From: Shigella phage Sf25
Reading direction: 5' to 3' (one strand)
Length of the DNA stretch: 64,000 nucleotides
Sequence record: MF327009
Positions 1,916-61,547 of the stretch are shown here, piece by piece; position 1 is the first letter of the stretch; the number at the start of each line of letters is the position of its first letter. Position numbers and translations under genes: made by a program. The notes under the pieces are model-generated. The model ran no database searches and was not told the DNA's origin. It saw only the letters and a program-made list of their open reading frames with translations.

Positions 1916-3626
1916 TAACCTTAATTGGTTTGTTGGTGTTGTTGAAGATAGAATGGACCCATTAAAATTAGGTCGTGTTCGTGTTCGTGTGGTTGGTCTG
2001 CATCCACCACAAAGAGCACAAGGTGATGTAATGGGTATTCCAACTGAAAAATTACCATGGATGTCAGTTATTCAACCTATAACTTCTGCAGCAATGTCTG
2101 GAATTGGAGGTTCTGTTACTGGACCGGTAGAAGGAACTAGAGTTTATGGTCATTTTTTGGACAAATGGAAAACTAACGGAATTGTCCTTGGCACGTATGG
2201 TGGAATAGTTCGCGAAAAACCGAATAGACTTGAAGGATTTTCTGACCCAACTGGGCAATATCCTAGACGTTTAGGAAATGATACTAACGTACTAAACCAA
2301 GGCGGTGATGTAGGATATGATTCCTCTTCTAATGTTATTCAAGATAGTAACTTAGACACTGCAATAAATCCTGATGATAGACCATTATCAGAAATTCCAA
2401 CTGATGATAATCCAAATATGTCAATGGCTGAAATGCTTCGCCGCGATGAAGGATTAAGACTAAAAGTTTATTGGGATACCGAAGGATATCCGACAATTGG
2501 TATTGGTCATCTTATCATGAAGCAGCCAGTTCGTGATATGGCCCAAATTAATAAAGTTTTATCAAAACAGGTTGGTCGTGAAATTACCGGAAATCCAGGT
2601 TCTATTACAATGGAAGAAGCGGTAACTTTATTTGAACGTGATTTAGCTGATATGCAACGTGACATTAAATCACATTCTAAAGTTGGCCCAGTTTGGCAAG
2701 CGGTTAATCGTTCTCGTCAAATGGCATTAGAAAATATGGCATTTCAGATGGGTGTTGGCGGTGTAGCTAAATTTAACACAATGTTAACTGCTATGTTAGC
2801 CGGAGATTGGGAAAAAGCATATAAAGCTGGTCGTGATTCATTGTGGTATCAACAAACAAAAGGCCGTGCATCTCGTGTTACCATGATTATTCTTACAGGG
2901 AATTTGGAATCATACGGTATTGAAGTGAAAACACCGGCTAGGTCTTTGTCTGCAATGGCTGCTACTGTAGCAAAGTCTTCTGACCCGGCTGACCCTCCTA
3001 TTCCGAATGATTCGAGAATTTTATTTAAAGAACCTGTTTCTTCATATAAAGGTGAATATCCGTATGTTCACACAATGGAAACTGAAAGCGGTCATATTCA
3101 GGAATTTGACGATACCCCGGGACAAGAACGATACAGATTAGTTCATCCAACTGGAACTTATGAAGAAGTATCACCGTCAGGAAGAAGAACAAGAAAAACT
3201 GTTGATAATTTGTATGATATAACCAACGCTGATGGTAATTTTTTGGTAGCCGGTGATAAAAAGACTAACGTCGGTGGATCAGAAATTTATTACAACATGG
3301 ATAATCGTCTTCACCAAATAGATGGAAGCAATACGATATTTGTGCGTGGCGATGAAACTAAGACAGTTGAAGGTAATGGAACTATCCTAGTTAAAGGCAA
3401 TGTTACTATTGTAGTTGAAGGTAATGCTGACATTACAGTTAAAGGAGATGCTACCACTTTAGTTGAAGGAAATCAGACTAATACAGTAAATGGAAATCTT
3501 TCTTGGAAAGTTGCTGGGACAGTTGATTGGGACGTTGGTGGTGATTGGACAGAAAAAATGGCATCTATGAGTTCTATTTCATCTGGTCAATACACAATTG
3601 ATGGATCGAGGATTGACATTGGCTAA
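1899..3626 (+). CDS. 5: gp5 baseplate hub subunit / tail-associated lysozyme (cell-puncturing spike)
   Basis: 575 aa; T4-lysozyme-like segment (EGLRLKVYWDTEGYPTIGIGHL); C-terminal VxGxxxV beta-helix repeats. Confidence 0.95.
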   Translation: MEMISNNLNWFVGVVEDRMDPLKLGRVRVRVVGLHPPQRAQGDVMGIPTEKLPWMSVIQPITSAAMSGIGGSVTGPVEGTRVYGHFLDKWKTNGIVLGTYGGIVREKPNRLEGFSDPTGQYPRRLGNDTNVLNQGGDVGYDSSSNVIQDSNLDTAINPDDRPLSEIPTDDNPNMSMAEMLRRDEGLRLKVYWDTEGYPTIGIGHLIMKQPVRDMAQINKVLSKQVGREITGNPGSITMEEAVTLFERDLADMQRDIKSHSKVGPVWQAVNRSRQMALENMAFQMGVGGVAKFNTMLTAMLAGDWEKAYKAGRDSLWYQQTKGRASRVTMIILTGNLESYGIEVKTPARSLSAMAATVAKSSDPADPPIPNDSRILFKEPVSSYKGEYPYVHTMETESGHIQEFDDTPGQERYRLVHPTGTYEEVSPSGRRTRKTVDNLYDITNADGNFLVAGDKKTNVGGSEIYYNMDNRLHQIDGSNTIFVRGDETKTVEGNGTILVKGNVTIVVEGNADITVKGDATTLVEGNQTNTVNGNLSWKVAGTVDWDVGGDWTEKMASMSSISSGQYTIDGSRIDIG

Positions 3627-4150
3627 TATACTTCCAATGAGCGCTGATTTAGGAGAATCCATGGAAGGTTCTTCTATCGACGTCACCTTTACCGCTCAAT
3701 TAGAAACAGGTGAAACGTTAGTATCTATAAATATAACTAGTTACGAAGAAACTCCTGGGGTTTTAGTAGAAGAAAATCGTTTATATGGAACGTATGAATC
3801 TGTATTTGGATTTGGAAATGATGCGTTGAAATATCGTTTAGACGTTGGTGGTGATTGGACAGAAAAAATGGCATCTATGAGTTCTATTTCATCTGGTCAA
3901 TACACAATTGATGGATCGAGGATTGACATTGGCTAATATACTTCCAATGAGCGCTGATTTAGGAGAATCCATGGAAGGTTCTTCTATCGACGTCACCTTT
4001 ACCGCTCAATTAGAAACAGGTGAAACGTTAGTATCTATAAATATAACTAGTTACGAAGAAACTCCTGGGGTTTTAGTAGAAGAAAATCGTTTATATGGAA
4101 CGTATGAATCTGTATTTGGATTTGGAAATGATGCGTTGAAATATCGTTTA
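3531..4150. repeat. perfect tandem duplication, 2 x 310 bp (3531-3840 and 3841-4150)
   Basis: identical sequence at offset 310; spans gene 5 3' end and gene 5.1 5' end. Confidence 0.95.
3601..3936 (+). other. chimeric ORF created by the duplication: first 80 codons of 5.1 fused in frame to last ~30 codons of gp5
   Basis: 112-aa ORF; C-terminus VGGDWTEKMASMSSISSGQYTIDGSRIDIG is identical to the gp5 C-terminus. Confidence 0.7.
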
Positions 4151-4465
4151 GATAATGAATTTAAAACCGCTGCTTCATGGGAAGACCTTCCAACTGATTC
4201 TAATACTCAGTTATATTTATGGAAAGCTCCTCAAAACCTCCAGAAGACATTCACTTACGAAGTAACATTAATATATGACTACCAAGAACAAGGTGAATCT
4301 GGAGGTTCTGGTAGTAATTCTAGGTCATCTTCTGATACTACTGAACCGACAGATCCTCCTGCTCTAGTAAGAAAAACTCTCGTTAAAAATTATACTAAAA
4401 CTATAGTTGGAAATTGGAGTCGTTGGGCTAATAAACTGAGAAGCTACGTGTATGAGAGGCCATAA
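3911..4465 (+). CDS. 5.1: gene 5.1-like protein (intact second copy)
   Basis: 184-aa ORF from ATG 3911, follows gene 5 as in T4. Confidence 0.7.
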   Translation: MDRGLTLANILPMSADLGESMEGSSIDVTFTAQLETGETLVSINITSYEETPGVLVEENRLYGTYESVFGFGNDALKYRLDNEFKTAASWEDLPTDSNTQLYLWKAPQNLQKTFTYEVTLIYDYQEQGESGGSGSNSRSSSDTTEPTDPPALVRKTLVKNYTKTIVGNWSRWANKLRSYVYERP

Positions 4466-4691
4466 ATGTCAGGATTAAGTTATGATAAGTGTGTTACTGC
4501 TGGCCATGAAGCGTGGCCTCCAACAGTCGTGAATGCTACAAATTAAAAAGCCATATGAAACACATGGCGGAGTGACACAACCTAGAACTTCTAAGGTATA
4601 TGTCACTGGAAAGAAAGCTGTTCAAATGGCTGATCCAATATCATGCGGTGATACTGTGGCTCAGGCATCATCTAAAGTATTCATTAAATAG
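4466..4691 (+). pseudogene. 5.4: gene 5.4 (PAAR-like tail spike tip) disrupted by internal ~68-bp deletion and frameshift
   Basis: ATG at 4466 encodes [26 protein letters not shown] then TAA at 4544; the C-terminal 48 codons (KKPYETHGG...[16 protein letters not shown]) continue in another frame to TAG 4689-4691. Confidence 0.75.
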
Positions 4692-32834: not shown

Positions 32835-33036
32835 TTTTCACCTTTTTATTGATATGTCTTTTTCTATAGACAACTTTTTCTCGAGTTTCAAATTTATTCT
32901 TAGCAGTCATAGCTCGAGCCCATAATACAGCCACTTCTTTCGCCTGTAAGTTTAATTCACGAGCAATTTCAATGAATGACTTTCCAGACTCATGAAGAGT
33001 AAACACCACAACCTCAGTTCTCATAATCAATCTCAT
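32821..33036 (-). CDS. small helix-turn-helix-like protein (T4 24.3 position)
   Basis: 71-aa ORF; FIEIARELNLQAKEV resembles an HTH. Confidence 0.5.
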   Translation of the reverse strand: MRLIMRTEVVVFTLHESGKSFIEIARELNLQAKEVAVLWARAMTAKNKFETREKVVYRKRHINKKVKNGTV

Positions 33037-33326
33037 GTTATCGAGTTGGTGCCATTATATACATCATTTTCTGATTGTGTTTTGTGTGCTTTCAAAATGA
33101 AGAAAGGGGCCGAAGCCCCTTATGTAATACAGCCACTTCTTTCGCCTGTAAGTTTAATTCACGAGCAATTTCAATGAATGACTTTCCAGACTCATGAAGA
33201 GTAAACACCACAACCTCAGTTCTCATAATCAATCTCATGTTATCGAGTTGGTGCCATTATATACATCATTTTCTGATTGTGTTTTGTGTGCTTTCAAAAT
33301 GAAGAAAGGGGCCGAAGCCCCTTATG
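32923..33326. repeat. perfect tandem duplication, 2 x 202 bp (32923-33124 and 33125-33326)
   Basis: identical at offset 202; covers the 5' 38 codons of the small HTH gene, its upstream region and a GGGGCC-GAAG-CCCC hairpin. Confidence 0.95.
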
Positions 33327-38813: not shown

Positions 38814-38834
38814 ATTTGAATAAAAGGAGCATCT

Positions 38835-45393: not shown

Positions 45394-45424
45394 TTTGTGT
45401 TCCTCATGTTATGTCAGTAAGATT

Positions 45425-45453
45425 ACTATAACACAACACGAGGGACTTGTAAA
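45425..45453 (-). promoter_or_regulatory. sigma70-like early promoter (-35 TTTACA, 17-nt spacer, extended -10 TGtTATAGT)
   Basis: reverse complement of 45401-45454 reads GTTTACA...TGTTATAGT; the 54-bp element is identical to 61491-61544. Confidence 0.65.
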
Positions 45454-47511
45454 CTACATCTTGAACTTTTTAGACATTCCGTTGATGTTAACCAAAGAAG
45501 CCAAGATTTGAGAAACTTCGTTTTCCTCTTCTTTTGATTCTTCTACGAGGAATTGATTAAACCCAGCCATTGGACGAACTTCGCCAGTTTCCATTAGATG
45601 ATCGCCATCATATACCGATTCTTCTAATTGTTCAGAAGGAGGAACGATTGTGCCTTCGATTAGATACTTGTTATAAGCAGTTTCTTTCATCATGTACGTG
45701 CTTACTTTATTAATCTTCAACAAAATTCCACGCGGTAGAATAACTTCAGCTTCTGATGGAAATCCTGATAAATGACCTGGAACGATAACTTTGATTCGCT
45801 CAGCTCCTTTAATTACCATACCCACGCTAGTTTCAGCATCTTCATTAGCATATGTAGAATGACTACCCATATGCATCAAATCTTCTGCATCAATGGAACC
45901 TTCTCCTTCACCAGAAAATACTGCGCCGGAATCATCTAGAGCCATATAGTTTTTACCATGCTCACCGAAGATATTTGGTTTAAGCGATGTTGATACGAAG
46001 TTCTTGAAATAGAACATTTTATTTTCAATGTTATGACGCAAAGTTTTAAAGGTAACTTCTTGCCCACGATAAAGAGTAGTTCCTGGAGGAAGAACTGAAC
46101 CTTTAGCAAATGCAGAATCCAACGTCTCGATGTGTTTAATAGCTCGTTCCATATATTCTTCACGGGTAGAATCAGGTTTACCTAAAAGGAACGAGTTCAT
46201 TTCAACATATGAATCTGCACAATAATCTTCAATTACATCAGACTCAGCCTGAGTTAATCCTTTTGGAGTTACTTCAGTGCTTGCGTATTCATATGCCTGA
46301 GCGGCAGATTCATTAATCAATTTATAAATGCCATTCATGACAAATTGAATAATAGCTGTCTTTTCATCTGGTGTAGCTTTAGAACCTTTAACTAAATCAT
46401 TGATAATTTTCTTAATAACATCAAAGCTATTAGAAATATTAATGTCAGCAAGATCGCTTAAAATTTTATCAGTTTTATAATCAAAGAATTCTTTATTCTT
46501 TAAATATTCTTGAGAACCTTGATATGTTATATCGCTCTGCAACTTGATAGATGGATCACGTAAACGTGCATGGGCTAATGCAATATGATTTCGGAAACTT
46601 TCTAGTTCATAATCGTTAGATTTAAAACGAGAAGCACTTCTCATACCACCGATAGCTCCTTTGCTAAAGTTTGAACCAATCTGAATAACGCCAGAGTTCA
46701 TCGGACCTTCTGCTTTATATACCGGAACTTTAGATTCAAACTCTTGATATTTCTTAGCAGCGAAGCTATCACCCTGAAGTGAAGCATCAACAGTAGAATA
46801 TTGAGCTTGTGCTGCTAATCGACGACTAATTTTAGTTTTCTGAATAACAGCTTGATCCGTGCGCTTATCATTTTCTAAAGCAATAGAAGCAGCAACAGCG
46901 ACAGCTTTAGGAACAGCATTACCTGTTTTAACGTCTACATAAACATCACCAACCTTTGATTCAACTTTTGTGAATAACTCAGTTGAAATAGGAGGTACAC
47001 CTGGAATGTCTTCTAAATTGGCATTTTTACGGTAAACCATAATATATGCATATTTCTTATCATAGTCCCAGATTTCCTTTAAAAGAACATATCGACCTGC
47101 TCCTTTAGTACGTACTAAACGGTCAGCAATAACTTGCATTTGACGAGCAGCGCCATTTGTTTTACTCTTTAGTACGCGGAATAAGCATGCATCAATTTTA
47201 TACTGTTTCATTGTTTGAAGAGCAGTATCAAAAACAGCATTAATGACGCCAATTGGATTTCCACCCAAGTTTTTAAGCTTGACTAACGATAATTTCTCGT
47301 TGACACCTATCATTACGATATGCATCATTTTGTCGCCTGGCTTAACGTTTTTATTCGTATCACCGCCAGAGGTGTATGTACAAAATCTAAATCCAGGAAG
47401 CACGCTTTCTTCACCGGCTTGAATAGCAAAAATTTGTGGTATTTTATGCTTAGGATTTAAGTTAACAACCGGCGCCGAAGCGCCGTCAAATAATTCTGTA
47501 ATAAGTTCCAT
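45454..47511 (-). CDS. Alt-family ADP-ribosyltransferase paralog
   Basis: 685 aa; N-terminal MELITELFD shared with Alt; ART motifs YRGQ, FVSTSL, SEAEVILPRG. Confidence 0.85.
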   Translation of the reverse strand: MELITELFDGASAPVVNLNPKHKIPQIFAIQAGEESVLPGFRFCTYTSGGDTNKNVKPGDKMMHIVMIGVNEKLSLVKLKNLGGNPIGVINAVFDTALQTMKQYKIDACLFRVLKSKTNGAARQMQVIADRLVRTKGAGRYVLLKEIWDYDKKYAYIMVYRKNANLEDIPGVPPISTELFTKVESKVGDVYVDVKTGNAVPKAVAVAASIALENDKRTDQAVIQKTKISRRLAAQAQYSTVDASLQGDSFAAKKYQEFESKVPVYKAEGPMNSGVIQIGSNFSKGAIGGMRSASRFKSNDYELESFRNHIALAHARLRDPSIKLQSDITYQGSQEYLKNKEFFDYKTDKILSDLADINISNSFDVIKKIINDLVKGSKATPDEKTAIIQFVMNGIYKLINESAAQAYEYASTEVTPKGLTQAESDVIEDYCADSYVEMNSFLLGKPDSTREEYMERAIKHIETLDSAFAKGSVLPPGTTLYRGQEVTFKTLRHNIENKMFYFKNFVSTSLKPNIFGEHGKNYMALDDSGAVFSGEGEGSIDAEDLMHMGSHSTYANEDAETSVGMVIKGAERIKVIVPGHLSGFPSEAEVILPRGILLKINKVSTYMMKETAYNKYLIEGTIVPPSEQLEESVYDGDHLMETGEVRPMAGFNQFLVEESKEEENEVSQILASLVNINGMSKKFKM

Positions 47512-54382: not shown

Positions 54383-54411
54383 ATACTAACACAAAGGAAC
54401 CATACTGTAAA
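54383..54411 (-). promoter_or_regulatory. sigma70-like early promoter (-35 TTTACA, 17-nt spacer, TGtTAGTAT)
   Basis: reverse complement of 54383-54412 reads GTTTACA-N17-TAGTAT. Confidence 0.5.
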
Positions 54412-54430
54412 CAACTTTGTGCAATCTTTG

Positions 54431-54460
54431 GAAAATAAAAAAGGACTCCCGAAGGAGTCC
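54431..54460 (-). terminator. rho-independent terminator (GGACTCC-CGAA-GGAGTCC hairpin plus U-run) after the duplicated basic-protein gene
   Basis: perfect 7-bp stem followed on the minus strand by TTTTTTATTTTC. Confidence 0.65.
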
Positions 54461-54465
54461 TCAAC

Positions 54466-54807
54466 TTATGCTTTCTGCTTACCAAAACGAGAAGCATCAT
54501 CTCGAAGAACCGCACGTGCTCGGCGCATGATCTTCTCAACAGTTTGATTGATACGAGAGTTCGACCCACGCTTGTAGCCAGCGCGTTTAGAATCACCAAC
54601 TTTCTTTTCAACTGCTTTCTTTGCTTTAGCTTGTTTTTTCTGCTTACCAAAACGAGAAGCATCATCTCGAAGAACCGCACGTGCTCGGCGCATGATCTTC
54701 TCAACAGTTTGATTGATACGAGAGTTCGACCCACGCTTGTAGCCAGCGCGTTTAGAATCACCAACTTTCTTTTCAACTGCTTTCTTTGCTTTAGCTTGTT
54801 TTGCCAT
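54466..54807 (-). CDS. small lysine/arginine-rich protein carrying an in-frame 55-codon tandem duplication
   Basis: from ATG 54807: MAKQAKAKKAVEKK...RFGKQK then KQAKAKKAVEKK...RFGKQKA; 113 aa, about 58 aa without the duplication. Confidence 0.65.
   Translation of the reverse strand: MAKQAKAKKAVEKKVGDSKRAGYKRGSNSRINQTVEKIMRRARAVLRDDASRFGKQKKQAKAKKAVEKKVGDSKRAGYKRGSNSRINQTVEKIMRRARAVLRDDASRFGKQKA
54472..54801. repeat. perfect tandem duplication, 2 x 165 bp (54472-54636 and 54637-54801)
   Basis: identical at offset 165, in frame within the basic-protein gene. Confidence 0.95.
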
Positions 54808-55095
54808 TATAAATTCTCTTTTAAATGAAAATGCAGGACTTATTGGCATTGCCTGCGCAAGCCCTCAAGGGGAACATAGGTTTTTGGATATTTAACGACC
54901 AGGATAACCATAAACCCGTCATCATACCACCAAGACTTACACAGATAACACTTTTCTGACGCATGATAGTAACATTCAAGAGGTACACCGTAAAACTGCC
55001 GGGGTCTTGAAACTATAATGATTCGCAAATCATTAATCAGACAGTTCGACGGCTCCTCGATTTAGCTCACACTAAGGCAGTGAATCTCCAATAAA

Positions 55096-55428: not shown

Positions 55429-55734
55429 CTAACAGGTAACGAATTTTTGTTTAATTTCTTTTGGCTGCTTAAGACCCAGAGCTACAAAAGGGTGTGGAAC
55501 GTTTCGAATTTGACCAACTGGAAGAGAAGTCAAATCACCAACTTCACAGAAACCTTCAGGAACATCAGGACCAACAGAGTGAACTACACACAGTTCAGGA
55601 ACTTCACCTTGAACACGTTTACCGATAATAAGTCCTGATTCTGTAACTTCTTCATCACCGGCTTGTGCAGGTTCAGAAACTAAAATAACATATTCACCGA
55701 CAGCACGAATTGGTAGCTGTTGTACTTCAGACAT
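55429..55734 (-). CDS. 31: gp31 co-chaperonin (GroES analogue)
   Basis: 101-aa [25 protein letters not shown]...; T4 synteny. Confidence 0.8.
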
Positions 55735-60196: not shown

Positions 60197-60639
60197 TTAT
60201 CCTCTTTTAACTCTTGACGATAATAACATATCATAGTTTTCTGATCATGTACATATCGTTTTACATCATTAAGCCAAATGCGAAATTCCTGGGAATCTTC
60301 AAATGGCATACCGACCCAAGCTTTACCATCAATAACTTTAACTTGCCAGGATAGTTTAGCTTCATCGTATGACTTTATTTGTACTGGCCAATTAGGATGA
60401 ACTGTTTCTTTCTTTACTTCTAGAGGCTTTGTCGAACAACCAACTAGAAGACCAATAGATAATATTACCCAAGCTTTACCATCAATAACTTTAACTTGCC
60501 AGGATAGTTTAGCTTCATCGTATGACTTTATTTGTACTGGCCAATTAGGATGAACTGTTTCTTTCTTTACTTCTAGAGGCTTTGTCGAACAACCAACTAG
60601 AAGACCAATAGATAATATTACTGCTGATAGTTTAATCAT
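60187..60639 (-). CDS. outer-membrane spanin (o-spanin lipoprotein) carrying an in-frame 51-codon tandem duplication
   Basis: 150 aa; signal peptide with lipobox LLVGC; residues ILSIGLLVGCSTKPLEV...DGKAWV occur twice in tandem. Confidence 0.7.
   Translation of the reverse strand: MIKLSAVILSIGLLVGCSTKPLEVKKETVHPNWPVQIKSYDEAKLSWQVKVIDGKAWVILSIGLLVGCSTKPLEVKKETVHPNWPVQIKSYDEAKLSWQVKVIDGKAWVGMPFEDSQEFRIWLNDVKRYVHDQKTMICYYRQELKEDKCK
60314..60619. repeat. perfect tandem duplication, 2 x 153 bp (60314-60466 and 60467-60619)
   Basis: identical at offset 153, in frame within the o-spanin gene. Confidence 0.95.
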
Positions 60640-61483: not shown

Positions 61484-61514
61484 CATAAAGTCCTCATGTT
61501 ATGTCAGTAAGATT

Positions 61515-61543
61515 ACTATAACACAACACGAGGGACTTGTAAA
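61515..61543 (-). promoter_or_regulatory. sigma70-like early promoter upstream of alc (second copy of the 54-bp element)
   Basis: 61491-61544 is identical to 45401-45454: -35 TTTACA, 17-nt spacer, TGtTATAGT. Confidence 0.65.
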
Positions 61544-61547
61544 CAGC

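Follow-up and report, generated by a model that had tools for sequence, protein, structure and literature searches.

Nearly the whole of a small, basic gene is written twice, head-to-tail, in the 64,000-nucleotide stretch of DNA analysed here (hereafter the window). The question raised by this locus is whether the doubling belongs to the biology of a T4-like phage, either as a recent mutation or as a selected elongation of a protein, or whether it arose while the sequence was being produced.

Anatomy of the doubled reading frame

The gene lies on the minus strand, a point absent from the preliminary description of this DNA, and comprises the following features together with its immediate surroundings:

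54816..54820, minus strand: candidate Shine-Dalgarno-like AAGAG, 8 nt upstream of the ATG, as read from the sequence
54466..54807, minus strand: doubled gene 30.9 open reading frame (ORF), 113 codons, ATG at 54807-54805 and stop TAA at 54468-54466
54637..54801, minus strand: start-codon-side repeat copy, codons 3-57, 100% identical to the other copy
54472..54636, minus strand: stop-codon-side repeat copy, codons 58-112, 100% identical to the other copy
54636/54637, minus strand: novel junction with a microhomology of 1 nt
54432..54462, minus strand: predicted intrinsic terminator after 30.9, with a 9-bp GC-rich stem, a UUCG loop and a U-run
54383..54411, minus strand: putative sigma-70/T4-early-type promoter-like site, TTTACA-17-TAGTAT with TG, by consensus match

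The preliminary description had reported an exact in-frame repeat of 55 codons, and both self-comparison and TRF (score 662) bear this out: the 165 nt of 54472-54636 recur at 54637-54801 with 0 mismatches and 0 indels, an exactness that rules out a chance origin. The match extends 1 base beyond the unit (T at 54802), which accounts for the 1 nt of junction microhomology. The claimed lengthening of the product (58 to 113 aa) and its two identical basic repeats were likewise found in the translation of 54466-54807(-), which reads MAKQAKAKK...GKQK/KQAKAKK...GKQKA, the slash marking the junction. The doubled product has a predicted mass of 12.7 kDa, a pI of 11.5 and a net charge of +28, and the single-copy product (58 aa) a predicted mass of 6.5 kDa, a pI of 11.4 and a net charge of +14.

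The repeat unit is in frame and lies wholly within the ORF, leaving the Shine-Dalgarno-like element, the ATG and the stop codon outside. Because the AAGAG is not part of the repeat, the second copy would lack a translation start of its own and, with ATG and stop also excluded, the fusion protein would be the only product that can be made. As written, codons 3-57 of the 30.9 ortholog would thus have been duplicated head-to-tail with zero divergence between the copies, and the single upstream start would yield a 113-aa 'tandem dimer' bearing two SKRAGYKRxSNxRI motifs and two amphipathic helices. Collapsing the duplication restores an ordinary allele, with 1 mismatch in 965 nt and no gaps relative to phage SholemSchwarzbard.

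A strong terminator hairpin had also been noted after the gene, and scan and fold both recover it: the sequence GAGGACTCC-UUCG-GGAGUCCUU plus a U-run at 54462-54432(-) folds with -17.5 kcal/mol (z = -3.45). The predicted structure has the features of a Rho-independent terminator, namely a GC-rich hairpin followed directly by a U-run and placed downstream of the stop codon. A hit to the Rfam family Atu_C8 at 54427-54510 was rejected, as its 31 bits fall below the gathering score of 50 and it corresponds merely to the terminator hairpin. Terminator-like hairpins inside each repeat were not taken as functional, since their stems are weak (5 bp) and the wild-type gene has them too. Beyond the terminator, the putative promoter-like site at 54383..54411(-) would drive the downstream gene 30.8.

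Identity of the gene and of its product

The window derives from a Tequatrovirus (T4-like) genome, the best match reaching about 97% over 24 kb in a phage collection that does not include the window's own genome. The gene order cd - 31.2 - 31.1 - 31 - rIII - 30.9 - 30.8 - 30.7 ... 30, all on the minus strand, is that of T4. Comparison with the orthologous T4 gene between 30.8 and rIII, a check proposed at the outset, assigns the repeat-bearing gene, on its sequence and position, as the ortholog of T4 gene 30.9, and the relatives carry it in single copy.

Both repeat units match T4-type gp30.9 at 100% identity. The profile of phrog_1427, which PHROG lists as 'unknown function', matches a single unit at profile positions 11-68 of 75 (E 2.3e-31) and the doubled ORF in 2 stretches (E 1.2e-59). 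Membership of the gp30.9 family is therefore indicated by the match to the family profile, and it is indicated also by location, as the gene sits between rIII and 30.8, shares their strand and is followed by a terminator; the 110-nt spacer between 30.9 and 30.8 is identical to that of relatives. The architecture departs from that of the family, in which one SKRAGYKRxSNxRI motif and one amphipathic helix make up about 58 aa, as two such units are present here. T4 gene 30.9 (phrog_1427; UniProt 'Uncharacterized 11.1 kDa protein in Gp30-rIII intergenic region') shares sequence and synteny with the gene described here, whereas its known members are single-copy proteins called at 47-97 aa, with a core of 58 aa, against two copies in a 113-aa ORF.

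The family is a very small one: among 1.84 billion proteins it comprises 13 representatives at 50% identity, all of 47-97 aa and each with one matched stretch. They share a conserved core, SKRAGYKRxSNxRI(N/D)Q, after which comes a basic amphipathic helix. In an alignment of 16 homologues conservation starts exactly at MAKQAKAK, and upstream extensions are unconserved; for this reason the true gp30.9 product would be of 58 aa, and the upstream-extended starts giving 72, 97 or 127 aa were rejected. The start codons of 30.9 in public records are inconsistently over-extended. Public calls vary between 58, 72, 97, 102 and 105 aa (T4T HM137666, AV122 OR352952 and the 97-aa UniProt entry being examples), and some records of this 58-aa basic protein are labelled '1,4-alpha-glucan branching enzyme', an evident annotation error. 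A natural frameshift variant of gp30.9, 75 aa long and with its C-terminus altered after ...RARAV, is found in an NCBI record labelled Shigella flexneri, a phage-sized contig (166.6 kb) under a bacterial name.

Upstream of the gene, the stop codon of rIII lies 288 nt from the start codon of 30.9, and this spacer (54808-55095, minus strand) contains about 245 nt of non-coding sequence up to the 30.9 ribosome-binding site. Some annotators place a 62-aa ORF in it, or extend 30.9 across it. A comparable spacer of about 325 nt, with conserved sequence islands, occurs in a distant T4-like phage (L019, 3177-3500), and the synteny rIII - spacer - 30.9 - terminator - 30.8 is kept even at that distance. 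The spacer may contain middle or late promoters. Its reading as a structured RNA was dropped, given that the fold is not significant (z = -1.42) and Rfam returned no hit.

With regard to function, Pfam gave no match to the 58-aa protein and sub-threshold matches only to the doubled ORF, and an NCBIfam search of the 58-aa protein gave no match. The best PDB sequence match to gp30.9, SlmA, was rejected as a chance hit (E about 1), Foldseek of the gp30.9 model returned 0 hits in PDB and BFVD, and in the literature a gene-table mention was all that was found on the function of gp30.9. In the AF2 model of the 58-aa protein, a basic N-terminal helix of low confidence leads through a loop into a confidently predicted amphipathic helix at residues 29-54. 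The small, highly basic and helical character of gp30.9 suggests a binder of nucleic acid or of ribosome/RNA.

In this regard, the doubled gp30.9 could be conceived as the product of adaptive gene elongation, selected (for instance against host defence) as a single-chain dimer or as a two-motif binder of higher avidity. In favour of this idea, 55 of the 58 codons are doubled in frame, start, stop and terminator are kept, and the lysine-rich N-terminal segment could, judging from the model, act as a flexible linker between the helical cores. The AF2 model of the doubled protein argues against this idea, as it consists of three long extended helices without a compact fold or pseudo-dimer (pTM 0.33), and no annotation of gp30.9 offers a selective rationale. 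With the search results and the sibling events described below, we consider adaptive elongation highly improbable.

Search for the doubled allele in other genomes

The two-unit allele is private to this sequence among the public collections searched. When the locus was used as an 801-nt query, 941 phage records matched, and all 40 matches listed span 635-638 nt, that is, one copy; at this locus phage SholemSchwarzbard is 100% identical except for the duplication. A 44-nt probe across the 30.9 junction, neither half of which is long enough to seed an alignment with single-copy DNA, found no match in 50,697 phage records, nor in PLSDB plasmids or 5,426 E. coli genomes. Exact junction patterns were likewise found in none of the IMG/VR, JGI metagenome and GTDB genome collections, and the single-copy boundary pattern, used as a positive control, was present in 5 IMG/VR contigs. 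All independent contigs with an identical 30.8 gene (8/8) carry a single-copy 30.9 and the same 110-nt spacer.

The protein searches gave a consistent picture. Among 5.8 billion proteins 34 homologues were retrieved, and their coverage of the doubled query is at most 50%; no 30.9 homologue is called at more than 105 aa or has more than one matched stretch. No exact-protein record was found for the 113-aa or the 127-aa product, nor for the doubled spanin, the hoc ORF or gp5 of the window. Protein elongation by internal tandem duplication is a known process that involves the same in-frame doubling of nearly a whole small domain. Evolved elongations, however, have diverged repeats and occur in several lineages, whereas the two 30.9 copies have not diverged at all and are confined to one sequence; the doubling thus carries no sign of age or spread. 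Both the lack of divergence and the lack of any two-repeat family member in the protein collections searched speak against an adaptive origin.

Further rearrangements in the window

The preliminary description had treated the repeat without its context, which includes, in the same window, four perfect tandem duplications, the 30.9 repeat among them, and four clean deletions. A scan of the whole window identified the perfect 2.0-copy tandem duplications (310, 202, 165 and 153 nt):

3531..4152, plus strand: 310-nt x2 tandem duplication, reaching from the 3' end of gene 5 into the 5' part of gene 5.1
32923..33326, minus strand: 202-nt x2 tandem duplication, 5' 114 nt of gene 24.3 and 88 nt upstream
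54472-54802, minus strand: 165-nt x2 tandem duplication within gene 30.9
60314..60621, minus strand: 153-nt x2 tandem duplication, in frame within the gene of the pseT.2 o-spanin lipoprotein

The clean deletions (68, 133, 29 and 93 nt) were found by comparing the window with six relatives, none of which has any of them:

4539..4540, plus strand: 68-nt deletion, gene 5.4 (PAAR spike tip, starting at 4466) frameshifted after about 24 codons
34394..34395, minus strand: 133-nt deletion inside hoc, with a frameshift
38817..38818, no strand assigned: 29-nt deletion in the 50-nt divergent intergenic region of genes 26 and 51
55431..55432, minus strand: 93-nt deletion of the last 10 codons and stop of gene 31, plus 60 nt of spacer

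The junctions of the other three duplications were absent from the phage collection (50,697 genomes), as were the four deletion junctions from the same 50,697 genomes. Each of the four duplications, once collapsed, gives an allele that aligns gap-free to relatives.

Some details of the individual sites are as follows. The duplication at 3531-4152 includes the first ~81 codons of gene 5.1 and leaves gp5 (575 aa) and 5.1 intact, while adding a chimeric 112-aa ORF made of the 5.1 N-terminus and the gp5 C-terminus. The one at 32923-33326 directly adjoins the hoc stop codon, with a microhomology of 0 nt. At 60314-60621 the o-spanin grows from 99 to 150 aa and its signal/lipobox segment ILSIGLLVGCS is doubled. 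The 133-nt deletion leaves hoc with a longest ORF of 256 aa that has a TTG start; hoc is dispensable. The 29-nt deletion takes most of the 26/51 intergenic region and lies immediately before the ribosome-binding site of gene 51. Besides the tandem duplications, the window has a single long exact repeat, a 54-nt direct repeat (45401-45454 and 61491-61544, 16 kb apart), which on the minus strand resembles a T4 early promoter (GTTTAC...TATAGT) with leader and SD; it is natural, as the relative JLBYU31 also has it twice.

The lesion in gene 31 deserves particular attention. In the ORF at 55429-55734(-) the residues HYKAIPCLYK are lost and a TAG follows immediately, giving a gp31 of 101 aa, whereas this co-chaperonin has 111 aa in every relative. 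Gene 31 is essential for folding of the major capsid protein (PMC6318259). A gp31 of 101 aa, together with a frameshifted spike-tip gene, would be hard to reconcile with a fit phage.

The other seven events also speak against adaptive elongation of gp30.9: they are unrelated to the 30.9 doubling, share its junction style and in some cases are damaging.

Junctions and comparison with known rearrangements

Junction microhomology amounts to 2, 0, 1 and 2 nt at the duplications and to 0-1, 1, 0 and 3 nt at the deletions. When random breakpoints were simulated in this sequence, microhomologies of 0, 1 and 2 nt arose in 53%, 28% and 12% of cases and those of at least 6 nt in 0.3%, so that all eight junctions match random breakpoints. 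Every duplication is longer than every deletion, which has a chance of 1 in 70 under a common size distribution, and this size split hints at two separate generating rules.

Amplifications and deletions of T4 seen experimentally have, in turn, microhomologies of 6-10 bp (PMC9391042). The closest known counterparts of the 30.9 repeat in T4 are tandem segmental amplifications such as that of dmd-tifA (Srikant et al., 2022, PMC9391042), where duplications in rII and genes 17-18 are cited as further amplifications. They are likewise head-to-tail with one novel junction, and the 30.9 repeat, a direct repeat with a single novel junction, resembles them to this extent. The known amplifications, however, are of kilobase scale, comprise whole genes and their expression signals (and thus act on dosage), often exceed two copies and have boundary microhomologies of 6-10 bp (PMC9391042). 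The 30.9 unit measures 165 nt, lies inside one ORF without SD, ATG or stop, is present in exactly two copies and has 1 nt of microhomology, its sibling duplications having 0-2 nt.

Origin of the doubling

The backbone of the window is that of a natural, cleanly sequenced and diverged Tequatrovirus. Mismatches to relatives are distributed 41:13:327 over codon positions 1, 2 and 3, and long ORFs are essentially without small indels. A generally poor assembly is excluded by such a genuine and clean backbone. The nearest relative remains unchanged across the duplication junctions, and consequently nothing points to chimeric joins of different strains; joins within one strain are neither supported nor excluded by this observation.

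A first way to account for these data is a genuine mutation of very recent date and no selective effect, in which a burst of short duplications and deletions took place in a phage stock by illegitimate recombination or template switching independent of microhomology (for example of the topoisomerase or end-joining type), and the 30.9 doubling is tolerated and not yet collapsed. The clean, natural backbone is in keeping with this possibility. Both within-gene duplications (30.9 and o-spanin) are in frame; random breakpoints would give this outcome 1 in 9 times, and it is what one would expect had purifying selection acted on real events. The two boundary-spanning duplications leave intact copies of gene 5 and gene 24.3, although intact gene copies result from any boundary-spanning tandem duplication. 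Headful packaging easily tolerates a net gain of about 0.5 kb, and in T4 the 30.9, hoc and spanin genes belong to non-essential classes.

The same hypothesis meets several difficulties. Eight private events fall in 64 kb, whereas about 256 kb of relatives and more than 900 related records have none; in particular, no exact tandem duplication above about 30 nt was found in about 256 kb of related sequence (13 loci), and under equal rates the probability of finding all four duplications in the window is 0.0016. The microhomology of 6-10 bp found at real T4 events is missing from these junctions. T4 is reportedly efficient, according to work by Singer and colleagues (Singer et al.) in 1982, at recombining direct repeats longer than about 50 bp, and for this reason alleles with perfect repeats would be short-lived and four of them together unstable. 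Finally, an essential gene 31 that is cut short and a gene 5.4 that is frameshifted are not easily squared with a fit phage. On balance, a neutral real mutation is unlikely.

Rather, we infer that the 30.9 doubling is probably an artefact of sequence production rather than part of phage biology, and that it came about through mis-assembly, editing or contig joining with untrimmed joins. According to this proposal, at least eight arbitrary structural edits would have been overlaid on a genuine Tequatrovirus genome across the 64-kb window, the 30.9 doubling being one of them. Sequence production is the most likely origin because all eight edits are private, their breakpoints look random and several of them damage conserved genes. 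Artefacts of assembly or construction (untrimmed overlaps, mis-joins, simulated structural variants) have the same perfect identity and exactly two copies, and the window further resembles them in its arbitrary breakpoints, in having several events per genome, in the absence of conservation and in the lesions to essential genes. It is unlike them in its high base-level quality and in the absence of a nearest-relative switch at the junctions, which, along with the in-frame within-gene duplications and the intact copies at gene boundaries, count against an artefact.

A broader alternative would accept all eight rearrangements as real and attribute them to a wild or laboratory Tequatrovirus lineage that went through a burst of microhomology-independent events, with 30.9 representing the birth of a two-repeat protein by elongation, selected for its reading frame. 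We regard this scenario as distinctly unlikely.

Implications

Taken together, our findings uphold the anatomy given in the preliminary description, and they suggest that a real phage probably does not have the doubled 30.9 gene, whose biological reality is doubtful. An artefactual origin of the edits would have a bearing beyond this gene, in that any finding in the window that relies on a local duplication, a deletion, a truncated gene or a novel fusion ORF is suspect until confirmed by reads. Should the doubling prove true, its weight would be modest, since gp30.9 is a protein without a known function. It would then show a very small phage protein caught in the act of doubling through internal duplication, and would point to an unusual process of rearrangement in a T4-like phage.
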